38,306 nt of DNA from the NCBI GenBank assembly GCA_022865265.1, contig JALIDO010000002.1:1-38306 (forward strand). Direction: 5' to 3'. The DNA comes from Candidatus Nanohalarchaeota archaeon QJJ-5. GTDB lineage: Archaea > Nanohalarchaeota > Nanosalinia > Nanosalinales > Nanoanaerosalinaceae. This document shows positions 7,129 through 26,386 of this stretch, piece after piece (position 1 is the stretch's first letter; every line of letters starts with the position of its first letter). The position numbers were made by a program, and so were the translations under genes. The notes under the pieces were generated by a model. It was not told the origin of the DNA. It made no database searches and saw only the letters and a program-made list of their open reading frames with translations.

Positions 7129-7131
7129 CGG

Positions 7132-7632: not shown

Positions 7633-7633
7633 G

Positions 7634-7654
7634 ATATATCTCTATATGATATAT
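7634..7654. promoter_or_regulatory. 7-bp inverted repeat (ATATATC-n7-GATATAT) in the divergent promoter of the DUF411 operon and ORF 7687
   Basis: Read directly. On the minus strand it lies between GATTTAAAAATAT (TATA-like, 7651-7663) and the DUF411 start. The region is AT-rich, so a chance match is possible. Confidence 0.35.
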
Positions 7655-7686
7655 TTTTAAATCTTCCGTAATGACCAATACACAGT

Positions 7687-8259: not shown

Positions 8260-8302
8260 CCACAGCCACGTTTATTAAGTCTTCTAGGAGATACAATAAT
8301 CC

Positions 8303-8707
8303 ATGGCTGAGATAGATCTATCCAACGTCAACCGGTTGTATACGGTCCTTTTGCTTGCCTCGGGTGGAAAACATGGTTACCAACTGATCAAAGAGATTGA
8401 AAACATCACGGGGACGAAACCGACCACCTCGCATATCTATCCGTTCCTCGATAAGCTGGCCGAGAAGGGTCTTGTCGAGGCTGAAAAACAGGGAAATCGT
8501 GGGAAGAAGGTCTATCATCTGACAGAGGCAGGAGAAGACCTGGTTGAAGAACAATTGAACTCATTCGGAACAATCCTGGAAGCCGCCATCGAAGGGGAAA
8601 TCGAAGAGTGCACACACTGTGGCTGTGAAATCTACAAAGGAGGATATGAGGATGCGGGTGAACTGTTCTGTTGTGAGCACTGCGCTGCGGCCAGTAAGGA
8701 GGTATAA
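8303..8707 (+). CDS. PadR-family winged-helix regulator fused to a C-terminal Cys-rich TRASH-like metal-binding module
   Basis: PadR signature (GGKHGYQLIKEI ... HIYPFLDKLAEKGLVEAE ... KKVYHLTEAGE). The C-terminus is CTHCGCEIYKGGYEDAGELFCCEHC, a C-x2-C ... C-x3-C pattern. Confidence 0.75.
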   Translation: MAEIDLSNVNRLYTVLLLASGGKHGYQLIKEIENITGTKPTTSHIYPFLDKLAEKGLVEAEKQGNRGKKVYHLTEAGEDLVEEQLNSFGTILEAAIEGEIEECTHCGCEIYKGGYEDAGELFCCEHCAAASKEV

Positions 8708-8722
8708 CGGTGTTATACCGTT
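8706..8722. terminator. Hairpin (AACGGT-gttat-ACCGTT) lying exactly between two convergent stop codons
   Basis: 6-bp stem and 5-nt loop read directly. It overlaps the padR-like TAA (8705-8707) and the msrA stop (8722-8724). Hairpins are not required for archaeal termination. Confidence 0.3.
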
Positions 8723-9396
8723 CACTTGTCTGTTAATGGACTGTTTTCCCATGTCCGTTCAAGGAACCCTTTCCGTCCTGAGGCACGCTCATAGGCTTCA
8801 TACTGGTATTGGTTCCGTATCGAGTAGTTCTGGTGTCTATCTGCAGCACGGTAGAAGGTACTGGCGTTCAGTATCTCGGTGACGATCGGTTCATCGAAGG
8901 TTCCACTCTCGCTCAGGTTCTGTTTTGATTCTTTTGCCAATCGATACTGTCGATCGGTATGGGTATAGATGGCTGTTGTATAGTGATATCCCCGATCTGA
9001 GAACTGTCCACCGGCATCGGTTGGATCGATGCTTTTCCAGTACATATCGAGCAATTCTTTGTACGAGATCAAAGAAGGATAGTATCTGAGTTTAACGGCT
9101 TCTCTGTGATCGGTCTTACCGGTTACAACAAGGTTGTAGCTGGCGTTTTCTTCTGATCCACCGGTAAAGCCTGATACTGCTGATGCGATTCCTTTTTCTC
9201 CCTGATAAACGCCTTCGATACACCAGAAACAGCCGCCGGCGAATGTTGCTGTCTTCGGTGTCTCGTTCTGCACCATGGTGTGCCATTGTTCATCGTCTGC
9301 AGGGTTTGCAGTATCAGTTGCTGTTGCCTGCGTCGTGACGACTGCTGTCAGGACGGCGACACCGATCAATGTTGTGATAAAGATGTTCCGGTACAT
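8722..9396 (-). CDS. msrA: Peptide-methionine (S)-S-oxide reductase MsrA with N-terminal membrane or signal anchor
   Basis: GGCFWCIEGVY active-site motif, preceded by a hydrophobic N-terminus (IFITTLIGVAVLTAVV). Confidence 0.9.
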   Translation of the reverse strand: MYRNIFITTLIGVAVLTAVVTTQATATDTANPADDEQWHTMVQNETPKTATFAGGCFWCIEGVYQGEKGIASAVSGFTGGSEENASYNLVVTGKTDHREAVKLRYYPSLISYKELLDMYWKSIDPTDAGGQFSDRGYHYTTAIYTHTDRQYRLAKESKQNLSESGTFDEPIVTEILNASTFYRAADRHQNYSIRNQYQYEAYERASGRKGFLERTWENSPLTDK

Positions 9397-9415
9397 CGTG
9401 GCTCGGTCGGAATGA

Positions 9416-9488
9416 TAGCCCCCCCCGGATTCGAACCAGGGCCACGCGGTCCAAAGCCGCGCGCACTTGACCGCTATGCTAGGGGGCT
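9416..9488 (-). tRNA. tRNA-Gln (anticodon UUG)
   Basis: Hand-folded cloverleaf. Acceptor AGCCCCC/GGGGGCT with the A1-U72 pair typical of archaeal tRNA-Gln. Anticodon stem CGCGG/CCGCG with loop CUUUGGA. T arm CCTGG-TTCGAAT-CCGGG, discriminator A. CCA is not encoded and there is no intron. Confidence 0.9.
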
Positions 9489-9510
9489 CTACAATGGTTC
9501 ATGCGTGCAA

Positions 9511-9523
9511 GTTTCTTAAATTC
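9511..9523 (-). promoter_or_regulatory. TATA-like box (GAATTTAAGAAAC) for tRNA-Gln
   Basis: Centred about 27 nt upstream of the tRNA 5' end, the canonical archaeal spacing. Confidence 0.5.
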
Positions 9524-9537
9524 ATCAAGGGTTGCTG

Positions 9538-10071
9538 TCAGATGATGGTGATGATAATGCCAACTAGAGGCAGGATACCGATGACAGCGATCAACCAGCC
9601 CACGAAGCGGAGTTGCAGGTCTGGCTGGTCTGGTGTCAGTTTGTCAGTGGTTCCGTCTTGTTCTGCCACCACGACACTTCCTGCTATCCTGTCACCGAGT
9701 CGCTGGCTGAAGGGAGATGCGAATGCTGTCCCGATACCGGTGAGGTAGAAGGTCGAAAAATCGAGGATACGGAAAACATTACGTATCAGGGCTGCTTTTG
9801 GTGTGATTGGTTCAAGTGTCTCTTTCTGCACGATCTTCAGATCCATACGTTCTTTTGCAGGCGTTGTTCCATCTTTGCTCTCGAATCCGATGAAATAGAG
9901 GATGTTGGCTATGATGATGGTGGCTCCTGCCGGGATCGGCCACGGGATAGAGAGTGTGTGAGCAAGTCCGAATCCGATCGGTATACCGATGAGGCTACCA
10001 AGAATCGACGCGATGAGGTGATCCGCCATTACGGCTGATCGAGAAACTAATGAGGCTGCTTGTAGACCCAT
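9538..10071 (-). CDS. RDD-family membrane protein
   Basis: TM segments flank ...TTPAKERMDLKIV... and a C-terminal QRLGDRIAGSVVV motif typical of RDD domains. The start is uncertain (ATG at 10071 or 10029). Confidence 0.65.
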   Translation of the reverse strand: MGLQAASLVSRSAVMADHLIASILGSLIGIPIGFGLAHTLSIPWPIPAGATIIIANILYFIGFESKDGTTPAKERMDLKIVQKETLEPITPKAALIRNVFRILDFSTFYLTGIGTAFASPFSQRLGDRIAGSVVVAEQDGTTDKLTPDQPDLQLRFVGWLIAVIGILPLVGIIITII

Positions 10072-10080
10072 CAGTGTCTA

Positions 10081-10647
10081 TTAGTTCGGGGTGACTTCTG
10101 TTTTCCGGAATTCGACGGTCTTGAGTGGGTAGATCTTCTTGCAGGCGTCGTTCAGTTCTGACTGGAGTTCGTTCTGGAACATATCCTGCATGAAGGTCTG
10201 GAAGTCACGGTCCTGTGCCTGTTCTGTGACAATCTCTTCCATCTGCTTCCGGATTTCGGTCTTGGCTGCTGATGTGGTCTTGTTGATGGTCGTAGCGATT
10301 AGCTTGACACGGACTTCACGGCCATCGCTTGTTTCCACATCGACGACCTGGTCGATTCGGTCGGTCTGTCGCCGTACCATCTTTGAGATGTATTCCTTCG
10401 ATGTATCGTGGCCTGCGAGGACGGCTTTTGCCTTGTTGCCCTCGACGTCTTTGACCTGTAGATAGACATCCATGTAGTATTTATCAGAGGATGGCATCAG
10501 GTCTTGTAGATTGACCTTGACGCGTCGGTCATGTAGCTTCTGTTCCTTGTCTGCTGGTGTCTCTGCTACTTTCTCGTTGTCAAATACATCTGGAGCGATG
10601 ATTTCGTACCAGTCTTTCTGTATTACTGATTTGGCCATGAGTATCAC
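10081..10647 (-). CDS. rps3ae: 30S ribosomal protein S3Ae (eS1)
   Basis: N-terminal KDWYEIIAPDVF motif, the right length and conserved archaeal synteny with S15 and RecJ-like. There is a 4-nt overlap with the upstream gene. Confidence 0.93.
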   Translation of the reverse strand: MILMAKSVIQKDWYEIIAPDVFDNEKVAETPADKEQKLHDRRVKVNLQDLMPSSDKYYMDVYLQVKDVEGNKAKAVLAGHDTSKEYISKMVRRQTDRIDQVVDVETSDGREVRVKLIATTINKTTSAAKTEIRKQMEEIVTEQAQDRDFQTFMQDMFQNELQSELNDACKKIYPLKTVEFRKTEVTPN

Positions 10648-12032
10648 GCTTGGTGAGTCAGGGTGTCTTTTGACAGTGACTCTGTCAGCTCTTCTCTGAT
10701 GACCTTTATAAACCTTTCTTGTTCTGTCCGGGGGATCTTGCCGCCTGCGGCTCGTTCGTGTCCACCGCCTTCACCCCCGACTGTCGTACAGCAGGTTTCC
10801 ATCAGTTCGCTCATCGCGAGGCCTGTCTCGGTCACCTCGGAGGAGGCGCGTGCAGATATCTTGATCGCATCCTCGCCTTTGTGTGCCATCCCGATGATGA
10901 TTGGATCATCCAGGATGTCGCTACGAATACAGATACTGGCGATGGTTCCGATCATATTGGCATGGATACTGTCGTCTGCCTGTATAAGAGTCCCGGGACC
11001 GATCTCCTGGATCACTTCTGTATCGTCCATGTTATCTTCCACGAAGGAAAGGTATCGTCCGATCTTGCGGCTGTACTTCCGTTTGATGGTCGCGGCCAGG
11101 TCGAAATCATCTTCACGTGCGATCGTCACACCATCAGCCGGCCGATCGAGGCGCCCGCATGCGTTCATCAATGAGGCGAATTCTCTGATCTCCCATCCGT
11201 TGTCCAGGATATAGACACTGCCGATGAGTTGTTCGATATCACCGTATCCTTTTTTGATAAGGCCATTGACAATCATCCGTTCTTCTTCAAGGCTCAGGTC
11301 TGCGAGTGACCGCCATTCTCCATTCTCGTCTGATAGTTCGATGCCAATCGAGCGGAGGAACTGGACGGCGCCGGATTCATTATCGGTGATGCCACTGAGA
11401 TACGGGTCGGTCGTGTAGGTCAGGGCTTTCACGAGATTCCTGCCCCGTCGTCCATAGAGTTTCAGGCCCTGTTTGATGGTGATGTGGTCATGCTTTTGTG
11501 CTTCTTCGACAATCTCTTGGTTCAGGCCCTGATAGGTATCACCATCACGCTGCATATCACCGGTTGCACCGATAAGAGCATAAGGGCTCAGGTCGATGTT
11601 TGCCTGATCAAGTTCGCGGGCTACCACATAGGTCATCCCGGCACCAGAGATTTCTGAGCCGCCATCGATGCCGACTAGATGGGGGTTACAGTGATGCTCA
11701 AGGGTTCCGTCCTCGGATGGTTCGTGGTGATCGATGATGGCCACGTCGTGATGGTCCAAGACAGTATTTACTGTCGGGAGCTGGCCGCTTCCGAAGTCTG
11801 TCAACAAGACGGTCTCGTGGTCATGGTCTGTCACAACAGATGCAAGTTTCTCTTCGGTAAGTTCATCGAGGAAGACCTGGTCGAACTGTTTGTCTTCCCG
11901 TTCGAGCATTTCACGCACGATGACAGCAGAACTGATGCCATCACAATCGTAATGGCTGACACAGAGAATATCATCGTGGTCTTTGAGAAATGATGCGATT
12001 TGTGCAGCGCTGGTTGTCAGTTGTTGGTCCAT
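10644..12032 (-). CDS. DHH/DHHA1 phosphoesterase, archaeal RecJ/Cdc45-like (GAN-type)
   Basis: DHH-family motifs (VSHYDCDGISS, LTDFG, IIDHH) and a C-terminal GGGHERAAGG (DHHA1). It occupies the conserved position between the S15 and S3Ae genes. Confidence 0.85.
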   Translation of the reverse strand: MDQQLTTSAAQIASFLKDHDDILCVSHYDCDGISSAVIVREMLEREDKQFDQVFLDELTEEKLASVVTDHDHETVLLTDFGSGQLPTVNTVLDHHDVAIIDHHEPSEDGTLEHHCNPHLVGIDGGSEISGAGMTYVVARELDQANIDLSPYALIGATGDMQRDGDTYQGLNQEIVEEAQKHDHITIKQGLKLYGRRGRNLVKALTYTTDPYLSGITDNESGAVQFLRSIGIELSDENGEWRSLADLSLEEERMIVNGLIKKGYGDIEQLIGSVYILDNGWEIREFASLMNACGRLDRPADGVTIAREDDFDLAATIKRKYSRKIGRYLSFVEDNMDDTEVIQEIGPGTLIQADDSIHANMIGTIASICIRSDILDDPIIIGMAHKGEDAIKISARASSEVTETGLAMSELMETCCTTVGGEGGGHERAAGGKIPRTEQERFIKVIREELTESLSKDTLTHQA

Positions 12033-12050
12033 CCTGTCTGCCTTCCTGTC

Positions 12051-12488
12051 TTATCGGTGGCGTTCAGGGGTGTAGGTCCAATCGTCATCGAGTTCATCGC
12101 CTCTGTAGTAATCAGCGAGGCGTCGTACTTTTGACTCGATGAGATCGAGGCTGCGCTGTGCTTCGAGATCGTTCTGGTTTTCATCCAGATGATCGCGGAT
12201 GCTGACAGCCCGATCGATCAGGTTCTGAAGATCTTCTGGTAGGTCAGTTCCGAGGTCTTCGGCATCGAGAATATCGGTGACTGCCTGGCCGGTCATGGCC
12301 TGAACGTCAGGGATGCCATACCGATCTCGGAGGATGCGGCCGATATCTGAGGCTCTGTGGCCCTGGTTGGCAAGCTTGACGACCAGTTGTTCGACTTCAT
12401 CGCTATCATAGGTAACCCAGCTTGTATCCATCGTTTTGGGTTTTGTCGATCCAGACTGGCCGCGTTGTTCTGAGTGCATCCGTGCCAT
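12051..12488 (-). CDS. rps15: 30S ribosomal protein S15 (uS15, S13e-type)
   Basis: 145 aa with an archaeal uS15 N-terminus (MARMHS..RG.SGS.KP) and a C-terminal helical S15 domain. Confidence 0.93.
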   Translation of the reverse strand: MARMHSEQRGQSGSTKPKTMDTSWVTYDSDEVEQLVVKLANQGHRASDIGRILRDRYGIPDVQAMTGQAVTDILDAEDLGTDLPEDLQNLIDRAVSIRDHLDENQNDLEAQRSLDLIESKVRRLADYYRGDELDDDWTYTPERHR

Positions 12489-12548
12489 GTATCATCACTA
12501 CCTCTGAAAGGGTATAGTATGCTCTCGCAGGCAAGTTTTTTATACCCT

Positions 12549-13136
12549 TCAGGTGTATCGTTGTCGGTTCTCGATGCTATGCATGCGTTGTTCCACATCT
12601 TCGCTTTCATCATATGTATCATGATAGGTCTCCATGATGGTCGAGAAAGCGTCGTTCCAGATGGTATTGTGGGTGGCCTCTAGTGTCTGTCGCAGCAGAC
12701 GGATATCGGTGGCACGGTCTTCGATTCGCTGTGAGAAATACCCAAGTCCGAAATCGATCACGATGATCTCATTGTCCTTTGAATACAGCATGTTCGAGGT
12801 GGTGAGATCGCCATGGATGATGTCATTAGCATGGAGGCGTCCGAGATATTCACCGATCGTTGGCCAGAGTGTCTCATCTGTCTCCAGATGTTCCCGTACA
12901 GGTGTGCCGCTGATCCATTCGATCTTGAGGGTGTGGTCATCGATCTGTTCGACAGCTGGGGTCGGGACACCGGCTTGCTGTGCTTTTTCCAGGAGACGTT
13001 TCTCCTGTGAGGTCCGATCGGCACGTATTGTCGCATCGATCTCAGGATGGCGATACTGTTTCGGGATTCGTTCTTTGATCACATGGTCATTGTCTCGTTT
13101 CAGGATGGCTTCGGCACCCTGGGCGATGATGGTCAC
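12549..13136 (-). CDS. bud32: KEOPS kinase/ATPase Bud32
   Basis: Small RIO-like kinase with GAEA near the N-terminus, IIHGDLTTSN catalytic loop and VIDFGL. ATGA overlap with the upstream yrdC-like gene. Confidence 0.88.
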   Translation of the reverse strand: MTIIAQGAEAILKRDNDHVIKERIPKQYRHPEIDATIRADRTSQEKRLLEKAQQAGVPTPAVEQIDDHTLKIEWISGTPVREHLETDETLWPTIGEYLGRLHANDIIHGDLTTSNMLYSKDNEIIVIDFGLGYFSQRIEDRATDIRLLRQTLEATHNTIWNDAFSTIMETYHDTYDESEDVEQRMHSIENRQRYT

Positions 13137-13711
13137 TGGTTGATCACCGCCTCGATCTGTTCTTTGGTGACCGGTCCGTTCCGATGGATGGTTATCCCTG
13201 TTGCTGTCAGTTCGGCGACAGTTGATGATGGTGTCTGTTCGAGTGTGCCGGCATCGATGATCGTATCGACCTGTTCTCGTACGGTCGGGTCGATCTCATC
13301 GATGCTGTAGGATGCGGGTTGGCCTGATCGGTTCGCACTGGTTGCGATGATCGGTGCACCGAGTTCCCGCGATAATCGTCGGCAGCGTTCGTGTGCAGGG
13401 ATACGGAAGGCAAATTTATGGTTCACGATAGAGGGTAATCGGTCATGTTTTTCTGTCACCAGGGTCAAAGGTCCTGGCATGAGGGTATCACAGATGTTCT
13501 GTTCTGCTGTTGTCAGGTCGCCATACTGGTCTGCCATCGATCGGTCGGCAACGATACAGGTGAGTTTCTTTTCACGCGGTCGTTGTTTGATATCGTATAT
13601 CTGCCGGACAGCATCAGGGTTCGTGGCATCACAACCGATGCCATAACAGGTCTCGGTTGGATAGATGAGTGTGCCACCGTGTTCGAGTGTCGTGATGGCA
13701 TCGTCAGTCAT
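13133..13711 (-). CDS. Threonylcarbamoyl-AMP synthase, short YrdC-only form
   Basis: Track ORF trimmed to the ATG at 13711, which overlaps the kae1 stop by 8 nt. YrdC motifs are present (LIYPTETCYGIGCDA, KQRPREKKLTCIV, LRRxxGAPIIATSANRSG-type segment). At 192 aa there is no C-terminal Sua5 domain. Confidence 0.85.
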   Translation of the reverse strand: MTDDAITTLEHGGTLIYPTETCYGIGCDATNPDAVRQIYDIKQRPREKKLTCIVADRSMADQYGDLTTAEQNICDTLMPGPLTLVTEKHDRLPSIVNHKFAFRIPAHERCRRLSRELGAPIIATSANRSGQPASYSIDEIDPTVREQVDTIIDAGTLEQTPSSTVAELTATGITIHRNGPVTKEQIEAVINQ

Positions 13712-14684
13712 CGATCCATGGCACCTCGGTCTGGTCGGTCCGCCAGTTTGGATCGGTGCCCAGTGCTGAAAGCTCTTCGCCACCGGCTGCTCTGTACTGG
13801 CGGGCACCGGCCTGTGCGATCATGGCACCGTTGTCCATACAGTATGCATGTGGAACCTTGAAACGCTGACCATCCCGTTCCTCGGCCATGGTTGCAGCCA
13901 TCTCCTGGAGTCGGTTGTTCGCGGCCACACCACCGGTCACGAGGAGTTCGTCTTTCCCGGTGTGTGCCATCGCCCGTTCTGCTGCTTCGATCAGCATGGC
14001 GAATGCGTATTCCTGGAAGGAGAAACACAAGTCATCGGTATCGACATCATCGATCTTCGATTGTGCTTCGGTTACAAGGCCTGAGAATGAGAAATCCATC
14101 CCTTTGACCACATATGGCAGATCGATTAGTGTCTCCCCCTGTCGTGCTCGTTGTTCGATCTCTGGACCACCAGGATGTGGAATATCCAGGGCACGGGCGA
14201 ATTTATCGAGGGCATTCCCGATGGCGATATCGAGGGTCTCACCGAAAACACGGTATCGTCCACCACTGTAGGCAATGATCTGTGCGTTGCCTCCGGAGAC
14301 ATACAGGGTGACGGGGTCTGTAGCATCGGTTGTCAGTTTTCCGATCTCGATGTGGGCGACACAATGGTTGACACCGACGATCGGGATATCATGCTGGGCT
14401 GCGAGGCTCCGGGCTACGGTACCACCGATCTGGAGGCATTGTGGAAGGCCAGGTCCTCGCGAGAAGGCGATACAATCGATATCTTCGATGTCATGGTCAG
14501 TCTGTGCCAGTGCCTGATCGAGGACCGTGTCTGCTTTCCGATAATGGTGTTCGGAGGCTTCGCTTGGATGTATGCCGCCTTCCTCGGGGGTGTACTGGTC
14601 TTTGCTGTTGGCCTGTATGGTGCCATCTTCGATGATACCGATACCGAAGGTATGTGCTGTCGACTCTATCCCGAGGGTGATCAT
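13704..14684 (-). CDS. kae1: tRNA N6-adenosine threonylcarbamoyltransferase Kae1
   Basis: ASKHA-fold Kae1/TsaD signatures: LGIESTAHTFGIGI, VGVNHCVAHIEIG, SGGNAQ and CMDNGAMIA. Confidence 0.95.
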   Translation of the reverse strand: MITLGIESTAHTFGIGIIEDGTIQANSKDQYTPEEGGIHPSEASEHHYRKADTVLDQALAQTDHDIEDIDCIAFSRGPGLPQCLQIGGTVARSLAAQHDIPIVGVNHCVAHIEIGKLTTDATDPVTLYVSGGNAQIIAYSGGRYRVFGETLDIAIGNALDKFARALDIPHPGGPEIEQRARQGETLIDLPYVVKGMDFSFSGLVTEAQSKIDDVDTDDLCFSFQEYAFAMLIEAAERAMAHTGKDELLVTGGVAANNRLQEMAATMAEERDGQRFKVPHAYCMDNGAMIAQAGARQYRAAGGEELSALGTDPNWRTDQTEVPWIDD

Positions 14685-14709
14685 CTCGGCTCACGGAGAG
14701 AAAAAAGGG

Positions 14710-14862
14710 TTACTTCTGGATCTTCGAGTACCCACACTTGCCACAGCTCTTGCGGCCGTCATGCTGTGCGAGCAATGAGCTGCATCGTGGGCACTGTTCG
14801 CCATCGAGTTCTCCGTCGTCGCTGTATTTTTCCCAGCGTTCAACGTTGGCGTGTTTCGGCAT
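14710..14862 (-). CDS. rps27ae: 30S ribosomal protein S27ae (eS31), 50 aa
   Basis: Hand-translated because it is below the ORF-track length cutoff: MPKHANVERWEKYSDDGELDGEQCPRCSSLLAQHDGRKSCGKCGYSKIQK. It has a CxxC...CxxC zinc ribbon. The ATG overlaps the S24e stop (TAATG). Confidence 0.85.
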   Translation of the reverse strand: MPKHANVERWEKYSDDGELDGEQCPRCSSLLAQHDGRKSCGKCGYSKIQK

Positions 14863-15167
14863 TATGCATCATCCTCTTCTTGTGTATCTTCTGTTTCGTC
14901 CTGTCCGTCTTCTGTGTCTTCCTCATCTTCGGGTTCGTGGACAGGTTCGTCCCAGACAGTGAGGACTGCTCGTGAGATTCCGTTTCCGTATTCTGTCTGG
15001 ATGGTCTCGACACTGACTGTATTGCGGTCGAAGTCCTGTTGTGCTGCGAAGTTCTTTCTGACATCATCGCCTGCCGGTGTAACCTCACCGGTGTGGTCGA
15101 TTGTCAGCTCATACTCGTCTCGTCCGAGCAGAGGGTTCTGTTTCTCTGCTGTGATTGATAGTTCCAT
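14862..15167 (-). CDS. rps24e: 30S ribosomal protein S24e with acidic C-terminal extension
   Basis: N-terminal NPLLGRDEY motif typical of S24e. GAGGTGA SD upstream. The tail is Asp/Glu-rich. Confidence 0.9.
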   Translation of the reverse strand: MELSITAEKQNPLLGRDEYELTIDHTGEVTPAGDDVRKNFAAQQDFDRNTVSVETIQTEYGNGISRAVLTVWDEPVHEPEDEEDTEDGQDETEDTQEEDDA

Positions 15168-15178
15168 GGTGGTTCACC

Positions 15179-16944: not shown

Positions 16945-17007
16945 GTCTTTATGTATGGTCAGTATCATTTTATACTCATGGAACAACGGGTACTGCATAC
17001 CTTTGAA

Positions 17008-17928
17008 ATGCTGGATGGGAGCTATGAGCTTGAATGCTGGGAGATTGGGAACGGTGATCCTGTCTGTCTGTTGATCGCTGGTATTCATGGTGATGAATAT
17101 CTTTCGATGGAGATCGCAGAACATGTCAGTGACAATCTAGAGCCAGCAACAGGGACGGTACGGATTATTCCTGTGGCGAATATTTTTGCTGCCTTCCGAC
17201 GGGCCCGAGCGACACCGTGGCCTGAGTTCGATTCACACGAGAGTGAGGAGCGTAATCTGAACCGGTCCTTCGATGCTGCGAAGGCGGCTGATGATCCGCG
17301 TGAATTGAGTCTCACTGCGGCTGTTGCATACTATATTTTGAACGAGGTCGAGACGGCTGATTATGTGATCGATATGCATACGGCAAGCTGGCCGGACCGG
17401 AAACTTCCACATGGACGTATCAAGGTATCTGAAAGCTACGATAGCGATGTTGTTGATGCAATGGAGGATCTGCTCCAGTGGAGTGGGCTTGAACATGCTT
17501 TGAAGACGGATCCAGCAGAGATCGGGTCTGGTGTCTTGAGCGATATCGTGCCACAACTCGGGACGCCAGCGATAACCTTAGAGATCGGCGGGGCGGGGAA
17601 CTATCGTGAAGAGGACTGGGAGACCTACCGGACCGTGATCAGGAATCTGTTACAGGGGGTCGGTATCAAGGAGGGTGAAAGTGTGATTGGAGAACCATCA
17701 ATCTTCCATGGGCTCCGGACCGTCTATGCACCGCGGTCTGGAACACTGGAACATGTAAAAGAGCTCGGTGATTCGGTAACAAAGGGTGATGTGATTGCAC
17801 GGGTCCGTGATACAACAGGTACGATCATTGATACAGTTGAGGCACCTGTAGCAGGAGTTATCGAGGCAGTCACCCAGCGTGATGCGGTGAACAGAGGGAA
17901 CAGGGTTGCGAAGATTGCGATTGAATGA
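17008..17928 (+). CDS. Succinylglutamate desuccinylase/aspartoacylase (AstE/AspA)-family zinc hydrolase
   Basis: Track ORF 16705.. trimmed to the ATG at 17008, about 33 nt after TTTTATAC. Family motifs are present: IAGIHGDE (Zn ligands), NLNRSF, VIDMHTAS and the C-terminal barrel segment GDVIARV...APVAGVIE. Confidence 0.8.
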   Translation: MLDGSYELECWEIGNGDPVCLLIAGIHGDEYLSMEIAEHVSDNLEPATGTVRIIPVANIFAAFRRARATPWPEFDSHESEERNLNRSFDAAKAADDPRELSLTAAVAYYILNEVETADYVIDMHTASWPDRKLPHGRIKVSESYDSDVVDAMEDLLQWSGLEHALKTDPAEIGSGVLSDIVPQLGTPAITLEIGGAGNYREEDWETYRTVIRNLLQGVGIKEGESVIGEPSIFHGLRTVYAPRSGTLEHVKELGDSVTKGDVIARVRDTTGTIIDTVEAPVAGVIEAVTQRDAVNRGNRVAKIAIE

Positions 17929-17969
17929 GCTCATGGTAAAGATAAAAAAGCCGTCATGGTAACAGGGAT

Positions 17970-19019
17970 ATGACAATGCAGCTCGATTATGACTACAAGG
18001 CCTCATCATTAAAGCGTATCGAACTTTCGTCTGATGCACGGATTGAACAAAGTGGTCACAAGCCCCAGACCGGTGATGTGATCGCTGTCCGGATCACGGA
18101 ACAACGCGGGGAGTACGGAGAACTTGATCTTCCTGGCGGTGATCTCGTCGATCTCGAAGAAGGTGATGTCGTTCTTGGGTGTTTTGGTAATCGGGCTGGT
18201 GTGAAAGGCTATATCGGGACGGTTCCAGAACGGATCGAGGAAGGTGATGATGTCTTTTTCCTTGGTTCGGGAGGGATCTTTGGTGCGTACAAATCAGCGA
18301 CGAAAGAGCTTGGTCTTCCGTATCGAGCCGAATTCATCGGCTATGTATCTGATGGGGAGAATATTCTCAATATGAAGGATTTCGGTGTTCAGAGTCATGA
18401 GGATCTGGAGGAAGAACCAGTCATCGTGGCTGTGGTCGCCAGTCGTATGGATGCTGGAAAGACGACGATCGCCTCGGAGTTGATCGAAGGGTTGACAGAT
18501 GATGGCTATGCGGTTGGGTCTGTCAAGCTAACAGGATCGGCCCGTGAACGTGACCGTGTGCAGATGTATGAATCAGGATCGCAGGTATCGCTTGACTTCG
18601 TCGATGGCGGGATGCCCTCGACCGTTGATGATGCTGATCAGGTCATCGATACAGCCAAAGGGATTGTTGATGCAGCCTGGATGGAGACTGATCTCGATGT
18701 GATCGTGGCCGAGTTCGGTGCCGGGATCATCAGTAACTATAATGTGAAAGAGACACTGCAGGATCTCGATATTCGTGATCGTGTCGCCTCGGTGGTCGTT
18801 GTTTCACTGGATGTTGCCGGGGCCTATGGGGTCAAGAAGGTCTTATCAGAGATCGATTACGATCTTGATCTGGTCTCTGGCCCTATCACCGATACAACAG
18901 CTGGTGTTGAAAAGATCGAGGACACGGTCGGTGTTCCTGCATTGAATGCCTTCCGCGATGATGATGTCGAACAAGCGGTTTCTATCGTTGCTGAAAAGAT
19001 CGATTCCTTTGAAGACTAG
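17970..19019 (+). CDS. P-loop NTPase-fold protein with N-terminal beta-rich domain (DUF1611/cDPG-synthetase-like?)
   Basis: 349 aa. Walker A-like VVASRMDAGKTT is followed by KLTGSARE and DFVDGG. The family assignment is from memory of motif patterns only. Confidence 0.55.
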   Translation: MTMQLDYDYKASSLKRIELSSDARIEQSGHKPQTGDVIAVRITEQRGEYGELDLPGGDLVDLEEGDVVLGCFGNRAGVKGYIGTVPERIEEGDDVFFLGSGGIFGAYKSATKELGLPYRAEFIGYVSDGENILNMKDFGVQSHEDLEEEPVIVAVVASRMDAGKTTIASELIEGLTDDGYAVGSVKLTGSARERDRVQMYESGSQVSLDFVDGGMPSTVDDADQVIDTAKGIVDAAWMETDLDVIVAEFGAGIISNYNVKETLQDLDIRDRVASVVVVSLDVAGAYGVKKVLSEIDYDLDLVSGPITDTTAGVEKIEDTVGVPALNAFRDDDVEQAVSIVAEKIDSFED

Positions 19020-19909
19020 ATACCGCGTTCGGACTGGAACGCATGGGTCTTGCGGTAGATGAATTCCATGACTCTGTCTGCCATGTCGATCCCGACCGCT
19101 TCATCTGTAGATTCGACACCAGGTGACATGTTGATCTCACCGATATAGAAGCCATCCTCACCCTCCAGGATATCGATCCCACAGAAATCGAAGCCACACA
19201 GGCGTGCTGCTTTCCGTGATACTTCTCGCATCTCTTCTGTAGCATCGTGCTGTTGTCGTTCGCCACCGGCCGAGATATTGGATCGCCATTCGTCTTCACC
19301 GCCGACACGTTTGTAGGAGAAGGTCTCGTCTCCGAGGACGATCACTCTGATATCTTCACCTGGGTTCTCGATGTACCGCTGGAGTGAAACGTCTTGTTCG
19401 AACAATGTCAAGGTATCGATGATCGGGCTCAGGCCGGATTCGTCCTCTGCTCGCATCACGCCTTTGCCACCATAGCCGGAGATGAGTTTGATGATGACAG
19501 GATAGCCGAGTTCTTTGGCTGCTCGTTCGGTCTCTTTGGTCGAAAGCGTATATGTGGAATCAGGGACCGGGATACCGCCTTCTCCGAGGGTCTTGACGCT
19601 GTAGAATTTGTTCGAGGCAATGGTCAGCGAATCGGTCTCGAGCTGAGTGTATACATCATGTTCTTCCAGTATCTCTGGGATGTGTTCTCCATACAGGAGA
19701 TCGCTCCCAAGGAATCTGATAAAGACGGCATCGAACTCATTCAGGTTGGTGTTCCGATACATCAGGCGTGTGTCTTCTTCACCATAGACGATGCGGACAC
19801 TTTCAAGTGGAACACCGAGAACCGTATCGAAGTATTCTTTTCCTTTCTCGATGAAATGATGGTGTTGTGCAGATTTCTTGCCATAGATAACAGCACACTT
19901 AATCATCAT
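19016..19909 (-). CDS. RimK-family ATP-grasp ligase (alpha-L-glutamate ligase-like)
   Basis: Trimmed to ATGATG at 19909/19906, which overlaps the upstream TAA and is preceded by GAGGTGAT. Motifs NKFYSVKTL, GYPVIIKLISGYGGKGV, LQRYIENPGEDIRVIVLG, WRSNISAGG and CGIDIL...YIGEINMSPG. Confidence 0.85.
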   Translation of the reverse strand: MMIKCAVIYGKKSAQHHHFIEKGKEYFDTVLGVPLESVRIVYGEEDTRLMYRNTNLNEFDAVFIRFLGSDLLYGEHIPEILEEHDVYTQLETDSLTIASNKFYSVKTLGEGGIPVPDSTYTLSTKETERAAKELGYPVIIKLISGYGGKGVMRAEDESGLSPIIDTLTLFEQDVSLQRYIENPGEDIRVIVLGDETFSYKRVGGEDEWRSNISAGGERQQHDATEEMREVSRKAARLCGFDFCGIDILEGEDGFYIGEINMSPGVESTDEAVGIDMADRVMEFIYRKTHAFQSERGI

Positions 19910-20717
19910 CACCTCGCAGCATATCTGCCACTTTTCCATAGACGTTTTTGCCACTGTGTTCCTGGAAGAGATCGAGTCGTGGTTCGTTCTCGACGCCAAC
20001 GATAGTGTTGCCGATCAGTCGCACACGGCACATCTTGGTACCGATGGCCTGGGCGGTCTCGTTCACCGCTTTGCTCTGTTCTGTCGAGAGTTTGCTGTAC
20101 TGTATCTTGTCATTGTTATCGAGATGCCAGGCGTCGCCTTCGAGTTCGAGCGAGACGAGGTCGCCGTCGATATACAGGACATCATAGACATCGCCATCAA
20201 CGTATTCCTGGAGGATGATGACATTTTCCTCGTGGTTGGCCGACTGTGCGAATGAGTGAAGGTCATCGCTGTCATCGATGGTTTTCATACCGGCGCTTGT
20301 GAATTGTTCATACATCTTTGCCACGGCCGGGAACTCGATATCGTCTTCGATTTCGGTGAGTGCTTTCTCGGTCGAGAAGGCGATAGTCTGTGGGATATTA
20401 ACATCGCGTTGATGGAGTACATGGAAGAGATAATGGCGTTTCATCATCAGAAACAGCGCTGTCGAGTCCATGTTTGTCTGGATATGGTGATCCTGGATGG
20501 TCTCGAGGAATGTCTTAGCGTAGATGGCTGCCCGTGGCTCTGGATTCAGGTAGACAGCATCATACTCGGTGATCGGTGTGCCCTCGACGGCTGCTGTCGT
20601 GGTGGTGTCTTTGTGGCTGATCTTGGCATCGGCCAGTGAATAATGATCCCACTGATCGAAATGCTCGGTCAGTCCATCGACCTCGGTCTCGTTATTCGTC
20701 AGTATCAGTAAATTCAT
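19899..20717 (-). CDS. Divergent ATP-grasp-like paralog, possibly non-catalytic or specialised
   Basis: Trimmed to the ATG at 20717, giving a 26-nt overlap with the upstream gene. It retains the ATP-grasp landmarks FPAVAKM, ILQEYVDGDVYDVLYIDG and VGVENEP. It lacks the Gly-rich loop and the R..SN..GG motif. Confidence 0.6.
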   Translation of the reverse strand: MNLLILTNNETEVDGLTEHFDQWDHYSLADAKISHKDTTTTAAVEGTPITEYDAVYLNPEPRAAIYAKTFLETIQDHHIQTNMDSTALFLMMKRHYLFHVLHQRDVNIPQTIAFSTEKALTEIEDDIEFPAVAKMYEQFTSAGMKTIDDSDDLHSFAQSANHEENVIILQEYVDGDVYDVLYIDGDLVSLELEGDAWHLDNNDKIQYSKLSTEQSKAVNETAQAIGTKMCRVRLIGNTIVGVENEPRLDLFQEHSGKNVYGKVADMLRGDDD

Positions 20718-22293
20718 CGAGCTGTTTCTCACCTGTATCGTTCTTCTGGTCGGGTTTCCACACGCGGTCGACTTTTTCTTCTCGGCGCCACTGGTCGAGG
20801 AAGTCTTCGACACTGTCAGGCATGACGCTTTTCAGGATACGGCCCTTACGCATGATCTTCCGGAGTCGTACCTCGAGTGTCTTTGAGAGGCTATCGTAGT
20901 AGTTCTTGTCGGCGTAGATGAGTCCTTCCTTGATACGCCAGTATGCTGTTGTTCCTTCTGGCGCCATGATGATGTATCCGCGTTTCCGGTCTTCCCACTC
21001 CTGCATGGCATCCAGCATCTCGTCTTTGTCGACGTAATAGACACCGCCTGAGGTAGTATGGGCTGATGGATCGACGATCAGTAGTTCATCTCCCTCGACG
21101 CCCACGGACAAGACATAATGACCCGTGTTTGCCTGTGGGAACAACATCGGTTTGGCGAAGTTCGGGACAACCAGACCGCCATCGTTGAACCATGTCTTGA
21201 ACTCATCGCCGAGATCGGTGATATTGTCGTATTCGACCCACGCTGCACGGATTTCACCATCTGTCTCGTTTTCGATACCTTCGATCAGATCATCGGGCAT
21301 CACGCCTTTGCCGACTTCGGTACCGGTCACTTCTGCAAGTCGTCCTTGATCAATATCATAGCCAAACAGTGTTAGGGCCATTTCTGCTGATGCAGGGCCA
21401 CAGTATGAGGGCTCCTGAGCGACAAAGTACTTCTTGATATCTTCAAGTGTTTCGATATCGGCCTGGACGCGTTTGAACAGGACTTTCCGATCCATCAGTT
21501 CGCTGTTCGGTGTCAGCATGAAGTACCCGGAATCGGTCGAGATGGTGGTACCGAATGCGGATATGTCTCTGATCTCGCCTGTTTCGTCTTCAAACTTGAC
21601 CTTCTTCCCTGGTTTGAGGACATCTGAGCTCCTGAGATACAGGCCCGCTGCGTAGTTCCGGATCAGGTCTTTGAAGCCGAAGAAGGCCAACAGACCGATG
21701 ACTCCGATCATCCCGTATGATGCTGCGATGACAGCATTGCTCAAGATCTGGGACTGGATGCCCAGTTGAACGAGTGCAATATCGATGATGACGAGATACA
21801 GCAGTACCTTGAGTCCTTTGAACGACAGTTCCATGATCTTCGGCGAGAAGCCAAGTTCCTGGAAATACTTCTTCAGCCCCACTGTATCGATGAACCGCAT
21901 CATGAAGTTGACACTCAGGTTGATCACAAAGATACCAAGGATCACTGTCAGGATGGCCGTCATCACGATCGGTGCGTTCTCGATCACGGTCCGATAGAGA
22001 TCGCTGCTCGCTGGGGCATTCAGATACAGGAGGGCAAGACCGATAGTCGCGATGGTAAAGATATATTCGATCGGTTTGTGTGGTTGTTTATCTCTATTAC
22101 GGATTTTTTCCACGACATCCTCTGATGCGCGTCGCTGGTAGAAGTATTTGAATATTGTGCTGGCTATCCGTCCCAGTAAGAAGCCACCTGCTAGGATACC
22201 AAAGGTAACAAGTATACGGACGGGCGTTGGTTGTTCAAGAACGATGTTCAGGAATTCTGACATGGGCTGGGAGGTAAAATCCATAGACCACAC
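20692..22293 (-). CDS. MscS-like mechanosensitive channel fused to a C-terminal papain-fold (C39-like) cysteine peptidase domain
   Basis: N-terminal multi-TM region plus MscS TM3/beta-domain (FGFKDLIRNYAAGLYLRSSDVLKPGKKVKF..GEIRDISAFGTTIST). The C-terminal domain has QEPSYCGPASAEMAL (Gln and Cys), NTGHYVLSVG (His) and LLIVDPS (Asp). The start is the GTG at 22293 or the ATG at 22284. TATATAAA lies about 22 nt upstream. Confidence 0.8.
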   Translation of the reverse strand: MWSMDFTSQPMSEFLNIVLEQPTPVRILVTFGILAGGFLLGRIASTIFKYFYQRRASEDVVEKIRNRDKQPHKPIEYIFTIATIGLALLYLNAPASSDLYRTVIENAPIVMTAILTVILGIFVINLSVNFMMRFIDTVGLKKYFQELGFSPKIMELSFKGLKVLLYLVIIDIALVQLGIQSQILSNAVIAASYGMIGVIGLLAFFGFKDLIRNYAAGLYLRSSDVLKPGKKVKFEDETGEIRDISAFGTTISTDSGYFMLTPNSELMDRKVLFKRVQADIETLEDIKKYFVAQEPSYCGPASAEMALTLFGYDIDQGRLAEVTGTEVGKGVMPDDLIEGIENETDGEIRAAWVEYDNITDLGDEFKTWFNDGGLVVPNFAKPMLFPQANTGHYVLSVGVEGDELLIVDPSAHTTSGGVYYVDKDEMLDAMQEWEDRKRGYIIMAPEGTTAYWRIKEGLIYADKNYYDSLSKTLEVRLRKIMRKGRILKSVMPDSVEDFLDQWRREEKVDRVWKPDQKNDTGEKQLDEFTDTDE

Positions 22294-22362
22294 GTAGGGT
22301 TAACCTGTTCTGTTGTTTATATACCTTGTGCTTGATTCCTGTCTTCAATCGGTGCAGAAACG

Positions 22363-24076: not shown

Positions 24077-24934
24077 ATGATGGCACAGGTCGGTGAGATA
24101 CTTGATTCAGCATGGGCAGCGATGAGTGAATACATGCAGGTCTCGAATCTTACTCAAGGAGAGGTAACCTCGGCTGTCATCATAATCGTTGTTGGGCTGA
24201 TCGGGGGCCGGATCGTTGCTCAGGTGGTCCGACGGCTTCTCAAGATGACAGCATTGGATGACCTCGCTGTCAAGGCCGATATCCAGCAGCTCCTGCGGAA
24301 ATTGGATTATTCGGGATCGCTTTCTGACCTGTTAGCCGATATCACCAAGTATATCATCTATCTCTTTGTCCTGTTTGCCCTATTCACGATGCTTGAGGTG
24401 CAGTTCCTCAGTCAGCAGCTCCAGTCGTTGTTCACCTATCTGCCTCGGTTGTTCATCGCATTGTTGGCTGTCATCATCGGGTCGATCATTTCCTCACATG
24501 TTGGAAGTATCACGATGAAGATATTCCGTGCTGGGCCGATGTCACAGCGAATCGATGAATCTGAAGCCTCATTGCCAGCATATCGTCTTGTTGGTGGCGG
24601 TGTCAAATTCATCGGGTATATCGCAACAATATTGATCGCCCTAGCAATCCTTGGAATCAACAGGATCGTGATCTATATGTTGCTTGCGATATTCATGACT
24701 GGCTTGACGGTACTGGTCATTATCGGGATGAAAGACGTGGTCCGTAATGTAGCGGTATCGATCTACTTCCAGCTCTCACGGACTGTCTCGGCAGGGGACA
24801 CGATCGAGACGGAGGAGTGTTCTGGGGAGATTATTCGTATAACACCGTTATACACTGTCATCAATGATAGTGGTGAGCATTTCTACGTACCGAATACCGC
24901 CCTTATTTCAAACACGATGCGGCATGAATCATAG
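24077..24934 (+). CDS. MscS-like mechanosensitive channel, minimal form without peptidase domain
   Basis: Same architecture as the N-terminal 280 aa of ORF 20692-22293 (GMKDVVRNVAVSIYFQLSRTVSAGDTIETEECSGEIIRITPLYTVIN). It ends directly after the beta-domain. Confidence 0.75.
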   Translation: MMAQVGEILDSAWAAMSEYMQVSNLTQGEVTSAVIIIVVGLIGGRIVAQVVRRLLKMTALDDLAVKADIQQLLRKLDYSGSLSDLLADITKYIIYLFVLFALFTMLEVQFLSQQLQSLFTYLPRLFIALLAVIIGSIISSHVGSITMKIFRAGPMSQRIDESEASLPAYRLVGGGVKFIGYIATILIALAILGINRIVIYMLLAIFMTGLTVLVIIGMKDVVRNVAVSIYFQLSRTVSAGDTIETEECSGEIIRITPLYTVINDSGEHFYVPNTALISNTMRHES

Positions 24935-24940
24935 GTACCG

Positions 24941-26386
24941 ATGGACCGAATTGTCGCCTATTATCTTGGTCTCTTTCTCAAGATCTATTCGGCGTTTCTG
25001 CTAGTTCCGGTTGCGGTTGGTCGGTATTTTGGTGAATCGTTTGTCCAGATGGAGCCGTTCATCTATGCGGCGTTTATCTCGATCGTGCTCGGCTATGCGC
25101 TCGATTACTGGGGTGTGAAAAAGGAACCAGATGCGATCGAAGGGATGCTTGCAGCGACAACAGGGTGGATCGCTGCTGTGGCGATTGGTGCGCTCCCGTT
25201 CATGGCGATGTTAAACATGGGCTTCGTTGATGCGTTTTTCGAATTGATGGCCGGGTTCACGACGACAGGGATGTCGATTCTTCCTGATCCTGCTGTTATG
25301 CCACATTCATTATCTTTCTGGCGTGGGTTCAGTCAATGGATCGGCGGGTTAGGAATGCTGACGTTCTTTGTAGCTGTCATCATCGAGGCAGGTGGTGTGG
25401 CCCAGAGTCTTTTGTTTGCTGAAGCAGACAAGACGGATGCTGGCACGATCCGGCCGTCGCCGATCAATGCAATCAAGTCACTCTGGTATGTCTATATCGT
25501 CTTTACGGCATTGCAGGCGACGATCCTCTATCTCCTTGATCTTTCTGTCTTCGATGCCGTGATGTATGCCTTCCAGACCCTACCGACTGGCGGGTTCTCC
25601 CATACGGCTGGTGGGATCGCAGCATTTGATTCGCTAGCGATCGAGGCGACGTTCACGGTGTTTATGTTCATCGGTGGAACCAATTTCCTGTTGTTGTATC
25701 TTTTGCTGAAGGGACGTCCGTGGGCTGTACTTCGAAACTATGAGTTCCGTTTGATGACAAAGGTACTGGCATTGGCACTGGTCATCATCGGTCTGGATGT
25801 CTGGATGAATAGTGGTCGAACGATCATAGAAACAGTCAGAGTTACGGTATTCATGACAGTTTCTGTGATGAGTTCGACCGGGTTCGAGCCGACAGGGGTC
25901 CGAACATTCCCGGAGCTTTCCAAGATGATCTTTCTGATGCTGATGTTTGTCGGTGCCTCGCTCGGGTCGACGACAGGCGGTATCAAGATGCTCCGATTCG
26001 GTGTCTTGTTGCGGGTTGTCATCAGAGAGGTCCGCAGTTTCTCCATGCCCCGGTCGGCTGTCAATCCGATCATGATCGGTGCCAGGCGGATCAAGACAGA
26101 AGAGTTGTTACGGATCATCACGATCGTCACGGTCTGGTTGACCATGATCATGGGTGGTGCCGTGATAACGATCGTGTTCTCTGATCTGGCGATGATCGAG
26201 GCGATCCAGGGAATGACATCATCGATGGGCACGATGGGGCCGTTGTTCATCGAACCCGGGGAATTGATCGGATTGCATCCTGTTGTGAAACTGTTGTGGT
26301 GTCTCGGGATGCTTGCTGGTCGTCTTGAGATTCTACCGATCTTGATCTTGATGAATGTCGAGGTTGTCAAGCGGATCCGTGGTTAA
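24941..26386 (+). CDS. trkH: Trk/Ktr-type potassium transporter membrane subunit TrkH
   Basis: 481-aa polytopic protein with repeated pore-loop Gly motifs (FTTTGMS, PTGGFS, SSTGFE, TTGGIK). Confidence 0.9.
   Translation: MDRIVAYYLGLFLKIYSAFLLVPVAVGRYFGESFVQMEPFIYAAFISIVLGYALDYWGVKKEPDAIEGMLAATTGWIAAVAIGALPFMAMLNMGFVDAFFELMAGFTTTGMSILPDPAVMPHSLSFWRGFSQWIGGLGMLTFFVAVIIEAGGVAQSLLFAEADKTDAGTIRPSPINAIKSLWYVYIVFTALQATILYLLDLSVFDAVMYAFQTLPTGGFSHTAGGIAAFDSLAIEATFTVFMFIGGTNFLLLYLLLKGRPWAVLRNYEFRLMTKVLALALVIIGLDVWMNSGRTIIETVRVTVFMTVSVMSSTGFEPTGVRTFPELSKMIFLMLMFVGASLGSTTGGIKMLRFGVLLRVVIREVRSFSMPRSAVNPIMIGARRIKTEELLRIITIVTVWLTMIMGGAVITIVFSDLAMIEAIQGMTSSMGTMGPLFIEPGELIGLHPVVKLLWCLGMLAGRLEILPILILMNVEVVKRIRG

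Follow-up and report, generated by a model that had tools for sequence, protein, structure and literature searches.

A 38,306-nucleotide stretch of DNA from Candidatus Nanohalarchaeota archaeon QJJ-5 (assembly GCA_022865265.1, contig JALIDO010000002.1, hereafter the window) carries, between positions 17008 and 22293, a group of five genes that includes an MscS-like channel fused to a papain-like peptidase and a RimK-family ligase. Three minus-strand genes, E, D and C, form a translationally coupled triad, and two plus-strand genes, A and B, converge on it. The locus consists of this core triad and a modular slot beside it, A and B being two of at least six interchangeable accessory gene types. 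In the window the genes are arranged as follows.

Gene E, 20692..22293, minus strand: MscS-like channel with a papain-like (C39/phytochelatin-synthase-like) cysteine peptidase, basic helices and an acidic tail
Gene D, 19899..20717, minus strand: degenerate ATP-grasp paralog of RimK, coupled translationally to E and C
Gene C, 19016..19909, minus strand: RimK-family alpha-L-glutamate-type ATP-grasp ligase
Gene B (accessory), 17970..19019, plus strand: all-beta N-terminal domain and SIMIBI-class P-loop domain
Gene A (accessory), 17008..17928, plus strand: AstE/AspA-family zinc amidohydrolase with a C-terminal barrel-sandwich domain

E and D overlap by 26 nt, and the ATG of C lies inside the 3' end of D with an overlap of 11 nt, as read directly from the sequence. 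The C start region is spanned by GAGGTGAT at 19915-19908, and the start codon itself sits within GAGGTGATG, inside the end of D. The tetranucleotide CTAG at 19016-19019, also read directly, is common to the stop codons of B and C, and the intergenic gaps in or near the operon measure 41 and 69 nt. Translation of E from the GTG at 22293 gives 533 amino acids, and from the in-frame ATG at 22284 it gives 530, the form held in the databases. One flank is formed by aIF2-gamma and S6e, the other by PIN_9, pyrophosphatase and Rpb7. The initial annotation, made from the sequence alone, had described the same layout: its coordinates for the open reading frames (ORFs), their overlaps and the shared CTAG were all recovered from the ORF map and the junction reads, its flanks (ppa/PIN on one side, aIF2-gamma/S6e on the other) agree with the ORF map and domain matches, and its assignment of A to AstE/AspA, of C to RimK and of E to MscS plus a cysteine peptidase is upheld by Pfam and NCBIfam.

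The triad is the conserved part of the locus. A pattern scan of GTDB with one genome per species yielded 56 loci, all of them nanohaloarchaeal, a few being labelled Aenigmatarchaeota. A scripted neighbourhood analysis found the order E-D-C in every locus with enough contig, about 50 in number, and because the order recurs in all of these, the arrangement is far beyond chance. D stands between E and C in every complete locus, and the start/stop overlaps of E with D and of D with C are conserved in related loci. The usual position of the triad is between S6e and aIF2-gamma, which it follows directly, and PIN and Rpb7. The initial annotation had proposed the five genes as one conserved unit, a proposal that has to be narrowed: E-D-C alone is universal, and all five genes occur together in 4 other species-level loci. 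Nanohaloarchaeal genomes are about 1 Mb in size and stripped of most biosynthesis, and an operon kept by every sampled lineage despite such small genomes, generally at one site among core genes of translation and transcription, is probably important to the biology of these organisms.

E had 250 homologs at an E-value of 0.001 or below. The 120 listed are near-full-length and 45-77% identical, and their source names are all archaeal, nearly all of Nanohaloarchaea. A HMMER search of 1.84 billion representative proteins with the peptidase-plus-tail module of E returned only 72 proteins, nearly all of which share its architecture at a length of about 500 amino acids. On account of this narrow yield, the sequence record indicates that the MscS-peptidase fusion is a lineage-specific invention. 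The protein is organized as follows.

Residues 1-275, 21469..22293, minus strand: transmembrane helices, pore helix and MscS beta-domain
Residues 276-445, 20959..21468, minus strand: papain-fold peptidase domain
Catalytic codons assigned by alignment, minus strand: Q293 at 21415-21417, C298 at 21400-21402, H392 at 21118-21120 and D408 at 21070-21072
Residues 446-533, 20695..20958, minus strand: C-terminal helices with a basic patch, then a disordered acidic tail ending ...LDEFTDTDE

The channel part of E matches the MscS beta-domain (PF00924; 24.4 bits against a cut-off of 20.2, residues 209-270), and its sequence matches in the Protein Data Bank (PDB) are MscS, at E-values of about 0.01-0.02. 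Beta-domain and pore helix align with residues 90-175 of E. coli MscS, residues 190-220 of E corresponding to 94-124 of MscS. The equivalents of the MscS hinge and gate positions are conserved across the 212 family members: that of N117 (N213 in E) is kept in 206 and that of G121 (G217) in 189, and that of L109 (position 205) is aromatic in 200. E differs from MscS in that the cytoplasmic alpha-beta domain and the C-terminal barrel are absent, the papain-fold domain and the basic helices following residue 275 in their place. The MscS family also includes a glutamate-exporting type, MscCG.

The peptidase part matches Peptidase_C39_2 (PF13529; 31 bits against a cut-off of 24). In the AlphaFold2 (AF2) model of E, pLDDT is about 80-90 in this domain and below 50 for residues 506-533. 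The best Foldseek match of the model is NsPCS (Alr0975), and the matches also include the pseudomurein isopeptidase PeiR, the C39 domains of PCAT and ComA, CtaG, and MscS; those of the peptidase domain have E-values between 1e-7 and 1e-4. E has the papain-like fold in common with the C39 domain of PCAT and with NsPCS, and its Gln, Cys, His and Asp follow one another as they do there. It differs from them in its low identity (15-21%) and in having neither an ABC transporter nor a GG-leader substrate, nor a Pfam phytochelatin match: E of the window gave no match to PF05023 (phytochelatin synthase-like) at an E-value of 0.01 or below, and some of its homologs carry a precomputed one. The initial annotation had considered that the active site might be degenerate; in the window Q293, C298, H392 and D408 are all intact. 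Across the family, the Gln, Cys and His are present in about 170 of 212 relatives and lost together in about 41, with D408 and the MscS marks retained.

Five positions of the C-terminal helices (R453, K471, K479, R482 and R510) have K or R in 186 or more of the 212 sequences. This basic patch stands out from a strongly acidic surrounding proteome, with -8 to -12 net charge per 100 residues. The acidic tail often ends in a DEF(T/I)D-like or DE(T/S)xDxx sequence, and some tails of E and D are short (...SPEEEE). An acidic peptide may bind to the patch, or the acidic tail could be auto-inhibitory.

C scores above the cut-off of the RimK model TIGR00768 (163.6 bits against 143.4), and its nearest PDB matches are the RimK proteins of E. 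coli and Pseudomonas, at about 1e-29. Across 54 orthologs there is no variation at the ATP-binding K141, in the glycine-rich loop (G145, G147, G148 and G150) or at Q177, R209, D246 and E258; the R-S-N residues S210 and N211 and the Mg ligand N260 are each kept in 53 of the 54. Judged by its sequence, C is a competent RimK-type ligase in which every RimK catalytic residue is present. It might instead be an enzyme of the MptN, CofF or LysX/ArgX type acting on methanopterin, F420 or LysW, with unrelated genes as neighbours, and it does have sub-threshold matches to MptN (142.7 bits), LysX (127.7) and CofF (63). These fall far under the equivalog cut-offs of 350, 275.6 and 300, none of the 56 loci contains a LysW-like ORF or cofactor genes, and the neighbours co-vary with the catalytic state of E and hence are not unrelated. 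We consider cofactor or carrier glutamylation very improbable. The score against the S6 ligase equivalog is similarly low (118.4 against 331), and C, for which the initial annotation had weighed a firm position inside the cofactor-ligase or RimK-S6 clades, thus scores under the cut-off of every characterised equivalog.

D gives only weak ATP-grasp/Ddl matches in Pfam and NCBIfam, and hhalign aligns it with C at 98.6% probability over 253 columns. It keeps K134 and Q170-E171. A YExFExxEM-type sequence stands where the Gly-rich loop was, the R-S-N motif is lost, an Arg takes the place of the Mg-binding Asp, and there is no conservation at the Glu-x-Asn positions. Because the Gly-rich loop, the R-S-N motif and the Mg-binding residues are gone, D is, on sequence grounds, a RimK-derived ATP-grasp pseudoenzyme and no second ligase. 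The initial annotation's two RimK-type ATP-grasp proteins are therefore both ATP-grasp homologs, but only C is a ligase, the catalytic motifs of D being lost. The possibility that D is a CDC123-like partner of the adjoining aIF2-gamma was also considered and set aside: D has no D123 Pfam match and is clearly RimK-derived, and in one clade the triad lies away from aIF2-gamma.

With a C39-like domain on a membrane protein and ATP-grasp proteins beside it, the triad might be read as a PCAT-like maturation and export system, in which E would cut a double-glycine leader, its channel would export the product and the ATP-grasp proteins would modify a ribosomal peptide. The Pfam matches to C39 and C39_2 and the structural likeness to the peptidase domains of PCAT1, ComA and LahT are in keeping with such a role. 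However, neither the operon, with its short gaps, nor its surroundings nor the related loci contain a precursor ORF, and no ABC domain or transporter is present; C is RimK-type and not a graspetide maturase; the operon has a housekeeping position and is universal across the class; and it persists even in the part of the family, about 20%, whose peptidase is dead. This explanation appears hardly credible to us.

The accessory protein A matches AstE_AspA_cat (PF24827; 1.5e-22, 80.5 bits against a cut-off of 25), with DoeB (6twm) and 3na6 as its PDB matches. It scores 66.4 against a cut-off of 402.7 for the DoeB equivalog and 16.7 against 170 for that of AstE. All 9 orthologs keep three zinc ligands (H27, E30 and H124), a carboxylate-binding arginine (R86) and a catalytic glutamate (E192); this active site, too, had been considered as possibly degenerate and is intact in the window. 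The 9 loci with A contain, in addition, B or else an extra RimK-like gene and a gene for a MATCAP-like metallopeptidase.

The second accessory protein, B, has only a sub-threshold MobB-like P-loop match in Pfam and NCBIfam. Its AF2 model (pLDDT 91) has an all-beta N-terminal domain and a SIMIBI-class P-loop domain. Foldseek matches the model to dethiobiotin synthetase (DTBS) at an E-value of about 2e-6 and a TMt of 0.62, with SRP54/FtsY and HypB scoring equally well, and a profile search of the PDB places DTBS first, but weakly, at an E-value of about 0.01. The motifs G163-K164-T165, K186 and E248-FGAG are invariant and resemble those of the dethiobiotin synthetase family. On the basis of this modelled fold, B is a candidate second ATP-dependent ligase. 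The P-loop protein of the initial annotation does have the P-loop domain but is not generic, given its SIMIBI class, its possibly dethiobiotin-synthetase-like fold and its all-beta N-terminal domain. Two other assignments were rejected. B is not a DUF1611/DgcN N-acetyltransferase, having no PF07755 match and an N-terminal domain that is all-beta and not Rossmann-like; remote relatives of B reach 16-24 bits against the PF07755 cut-off of 25, over the P-loop only. A role as a metallochaperone for the zinc enzyme A, raised by the HypB/MeaB-like fold matches, is unlikely, as B occurs without A in 17 loci.

A and B occupy what we term the slot, the space between C and PIN, the content of which was resolved in 49 species-level loci. 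G2 denotes a TTL/YheCD-like ATP-grasp protein (PF14398, PF03133), and MATCAP-like denotes a QEGLA-type metallopeptidase (PF08014).

B alone: 11 loci
B and A: 5 loci (the window, L006, L009, L033 and L057)
YbdK/GCS2-type carboxylate-amine ligase: 11 loci (7 with G2, 4 without)
G2 alone: 6 loci
G2 and MATCAP-like metallopeptidase: 7 loci
G2 and B: 6 loci
A, extra RimK-like ligase and MATCAP-like peptidase: 4 loci
Nothing recognisable: 1 locus (L054)

By family assignment, every recognised occupant of the slot is an amide-bond ligase or a peptidase. In L054 (7001-11675), which has no recognisable accessory gene, the peptidase of E is dead (E/A/N) and a convergent purD (GARS) directly follows the triad. 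The most expanded accessory set seen is that of L030, from Ca. Nanohalalkaliarchaeum halalkaliphilum (7001-15171), with a second full copy of C, an extra RimK-like ligase, a MATCAP-like and an AstE-like gene; E is dead there as well, with G/Q/S at the Q/C/H positions. In L029 (11275-13269, minus strand) the extra RimK-like ATP-grasp domain lies at residues of about 490-660 in a 665-aa stop-to-stop frame, which may reflect a long N-terminal extension or a frame running on upstream of the true start.

Slot content goes together with the catalytic state of E. A dead E peptidase, in which Gln, Cys and His are lost, accompanies the MATCAP-like gene in all 11 loci that have one, and none of the 33 loci with intact E carries such a gene (Fisher p=1.5e-7, ignoring kinship). 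L040, L041, L047, L049 and L054 have a dead E and no MATCAP-like gene locally. Of the 33 loci with intact E, 32 have B or GCS2, against 0 of the 16 with dead E; B itself, found in 22 of the 49 resolved loci, always accompanies an intact E peptidase. Dead forms of E fall into at least 4-5 separate clades of a rough neighbour-joining tree and differ in the residues that have replaced the catalytic ones. HExxH and the EEG motif downstream of it are preserved in the MATCAP-like genes, whose matches are remote and in places sub-threshold (25-103 bits).

This pattern suggests that the fused peptidase was replaced functionally by the MATCAP-like enzyme, a non-orthologous replacement in which the papain-like domain of E and the MATCAP-like carboxypeptidase would have one substrate in common. 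Decay of the one matched by gain of the other amounts to a natural experiment pointing to that shared substrate. Since the dead peptidase domain is retained, it probably has a binding or scaffolding role as well. The same pattern speaks more for peptide tails being trimmed than for a solute cycle confined to small molecules.

Because slot content follows the state of E, the accessory genes appear to belong functionally to the triad. The contrary view is that only E-D-C is a system, A and B being independent housekeeping genes that happen to adjoin it; they lie on the opposite strand, are likely to have their own promoter, and are each absent from many loci. However, the same slot always holds amide ligases or peptidases, B occurs only with intact E (22 loci), and the distribution of B or GCS2 separates intact from dead E. 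In one clade (L012-L014, L017, L026 and L052, with records labelled Aenigmatarchaeota or Nanobdellati) the triad lies away from aIF2-gamma and PIN, and G2 and B are still found downstream of it. B and G2 have thus moved along with the triad, from which it follows that the module moves as a unit. Independence of A and B is accordingly a doubtful explanation.

Three known systems offer comparisons for such a pairing of ligase and peptidase. RimK polyglutamylates ribosomal protein S6 at its C-terminus and makes poly-alpha-Glu, which RimB trims (PMC12239564). In Pseudomonas aeruginosa, RloB combines an inactive transglutaminase of papain fold with 7 transmembrane (TM) helices, RloC is a cytoplasmic RimK-related ATP-grasp protein, and RloA cleaves polyglutamate (PMC12239564). 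The RloABC genes show genetic linkage with each other and are needed under hypo-osmotic stress, and loss of the RloA peptidases is lethal in hypo-osmotic conditions, a phenotype suppressed by mutations in rloB or rloC (PMC12239564).

RloABC is analogous in architecture to the nanohaloarchaeal locus, as an operon of a membrane protein with a papain-fold domain, a RimK-related ATP-grasp protein and a peptidase. Loci with a dead E and a separate MATCAP-like peptidase reproduce this layout closely. The two systems differ in the membrane part, which is MscS-like here and 7TM in RloB, and in the papain-fold domain, which in E is cytoplasmic and mostly catalytically intact, whereas that of RloB is inactive. 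The separate nanohaloarchaeal peptidases are metalloenzymes (AstE-like or MATCAP-like) and not retropepsins, and the extra pseudo-ATP-grasp D and the archaeal host are also particular to the present system.

With RimK/RimB (the RimABK system), the locus shares a true RimK-family member in C and the pairing, in one operon, of a ligase with a peptidase that would remove glutamate. In contrast to RimABK, C reaches only 118 bits against the 331-bit cut-off of the S6 ligase, the peptidase is fused to a channel, and the locus has neither a retropepsin nor an EAL protein. Archaea lack bacterial-type S6, and the neighbouring S6e is unrelated to it. The tubulin code, in which TTL/TTLL ligases are opposed by MATCAP and M14 cytosolic carboxypeptidases (CCPs), provides a further parallel: the slot pairs a TTL/YheCD-like ATP-grasp protein with a MATCAP-family metallopeptidase in some loci, and a RimK-like ligase with an M14-related AstE-like hydrolase in others. 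By analogy, the two may work on one principle, a carboxypeptidase counteracting a ligase at acidic C-terminal tails. The similarity is remote, however, and the nanohaloarchaeal locus has no tubulin-like target.

Taken together, these observations lead us to a reading that we give an even chance, in which the locus encodes a membrane-anchored nanohaloarchaeal system for the synthesis and trimming of peptide tails or oligomers that contain glutamate. In a probable complex with the non-catalytic D, C would use ATP to add alpha-linked glutamate to a free carboxyl terminus; the acceptor could be the tail of a protein or a short peptide. A second ligase, differing between lineages, would add or prime a different residue; this would be B here, and GCS2, a TTL/YheCD-like or a RimK-like ATP-grasp protein elsewhere. 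The cytoplasmic papain-like domain of E would bind and cleave the product, assisted in the window by the zinc hydrolase A. Where the catalytic residues of E have decayed, the MATCAP-like metallocarboxypeptidase would trim, and E would stay as a binding scaffold in the manner of RloB.

The putatively heptameric MscS-like part would place this chemistry beneath a tension-gated pore and may couple it to turgor or to glutamate/K+ efflux. A link to turgor or osmotic release can be inferred from the MscS homology, from a TrkH gene and a second MscS-like gene nearby, and from the analogy with RloABC. As to the acceptor, the pairs of MATCAP-like and TTL-like proteins and the retained pseudo-domains favour a peptide or protein tail.

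An alternative is a soluble anionic solute cycle in which no protein is modified. The compound made by B and C would be small, N-acyl or oligo-glutamyl in nature and akin to N-acetylaspartylglutamate or N-acetylglutaminylglutamine amide; its hydrolysis would fall to A and the E peptidase, and the MscS part would release the products on hypo-osmotic shock. Several of the proteins have relatives suited to such a role: the closest solved relatives of A are the N-acetyl-diaminobutyrate deacetylase DoeB and aspartoacylase-family enzymes, the fold of B, if dethiobiotin-synthetase-like, is typical of small-molecule ligases, the slot alternatives include YbdK/GCS2-type ligases, and the best structural match of the E domain, NsPCS, is a glutathione-processing enzyme. 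In mammals, the RimK-like ligases RIMKLA/B and aspartoacylase act on the NAA/NAAG system. TrkH and the second MscS-like gene nearby would also fit, and RimK itself polymerises free glutamate (PMC12239564).

Against the solute cycle, the pairs of TTL/YheCD-like ATP-grasp and MATCAP-like proteins that replace the E peptidase, in at least 11 loci, belong to families in which the characterised proteins act on protein C-termini. A pseudo-ligase that is permanently kept and a peptidase domain that persists when dead suggest macromolecular recognition or scaffolding, and no acetyltransferase was recognised, B failing DUF1611/DgcN membership. We regard the solute cycle as possible, but clearly less probable than the making and trimming of peptide tails or oligomers. 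The initial annotation had inferred a ligase/hydrolase cycle tied to an MscS-like channel, and a conserved, functionally coherent set of amide ligases and hydrolases is indeed present there; a purely small-molecule cycle, which was among its options, is disfavoured by the pattern of MATCAP-like genes and dead E.

Some points weigh against a tail-directed system at the membrane. Small molecules are the classical substrates of AstE/AspA, dethiobiotin-synthetase-like and GCS2 enzymes, so that a soluble metabolite would suit them as well as a protein tail would, and no carrier or precursor ORF was found in the locus. The C-terminal tails of E and D, surveyed as a glutamylation target, gave no accessory-tracking pattern beyond phylogeny. 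The association between MATCAP-like genes and dead E ignores shared ancestry. The full-length monomer model of E has a pTM of 0.41, a low global confidence, so the placement of the peptidase relative to the pore is not fixed by the model, and the MscS part could merely be a membrane anchor.

A more specific proposal, which we hold to be unlikely, gives the channel a central part. The E heptamer would be a tension-gated peptide valve, with a cytoplasmic cage of seven cysteine-peptidase domains and basic helices that keeps the polymer at the channel. C and D would polymerise glutamate into poly- or oligo-alpha-glutamate that is osmotically silent. Cleavage, set off by membrane stretch or by a need for solute, would yield glutamate that is permeant or osmotically active, and the ends of the chains would be determined by the accessory ligases and carboxypeptidases. 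Glutamate is the main organic counter-ion of K+ in a salt-in cell. Turgor would, under this proposal, be regulated via polymerisation and depolymerisation of the counter-ion and not by transport alone.

The initial annotation knew of no described system with this gene composition, and none was found in the searchable literature. Queries for nanohaloarchaea with RimK, for MscS with C39 and ATP-grasp, and for DUF1704/MATCAP with ATP-grasp returned nothing relevant; a prior mention of RimK-peptidase contexts in a 2009 amidoligase survey, which is older than the first nanohaloarchaeal genomes, is possible. The system appears to be new as a lineage-specific combination of ATP-grasp ligase and peptidase with a unique channel-peptidase fusion, its general kind being already known. 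In addition, no PADLOC model matched any of the five proteins, and an anti-phage defence system was set aside. A glutamylated protein tail as the product would make the system the first counterpart in archaea of the glutamylation or tyrosination cycles of bacterial S6 and eukaryotic tubulin; free oligo-glutamate as the product would tie the synthesis of peptides directly to osmotic control in salt-in organisms. In either case the so far unexplained phenotype of bacterial RloABC would become easier to understand, and a class-wide signature gene set would gain a concrete, testable function.

Two promoter-like elements flank the genes of the window.

TATA-box-like element TATATAAA, 22316..22323, minus strand: about 27 nt upstream of the GTG of E, read from the sequence
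TTTTATA/TATAAAA element, 16968..16974, no strand assigned: between the divergent genes PIN (start 16944) and A (start 17008)

The first, by the usual archaeal spacing of TATA box and start site, suggests that the triad has its own promoter, separate from that of aIF2-gamma. The second lies about 27 nt upstream of the PIN start on the minus strand and is a possible bidirectional promoter serving PIN and A. The spacings of both suggest leaderless or short-leader transcripts.

A conserved ORF of 102-110 amino acids with no Pfam match lies between S6e and aIF2-gamma in the Nanohalovita and M3_22 loci L001 (6466-6774) and L003 (6457-6789), and the window has no such ORF. The second MscS-like gene of the window (24077-24934, plus strand) is truncated and encodes a protein of 285 amino acids that consists of transmembrane helices and beta-domain only and is 24% identical to the N-terminal half of E. 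The TrkH K+ transporter gene (24941-26386, plus strand) lies directly downstream of it, and the MscS-like gene is divergent from S6e. In L009 and L035, weak matches to the N-terminal part of E occur on the opposite strand upstream of S6e and may represent similar small paralogs.

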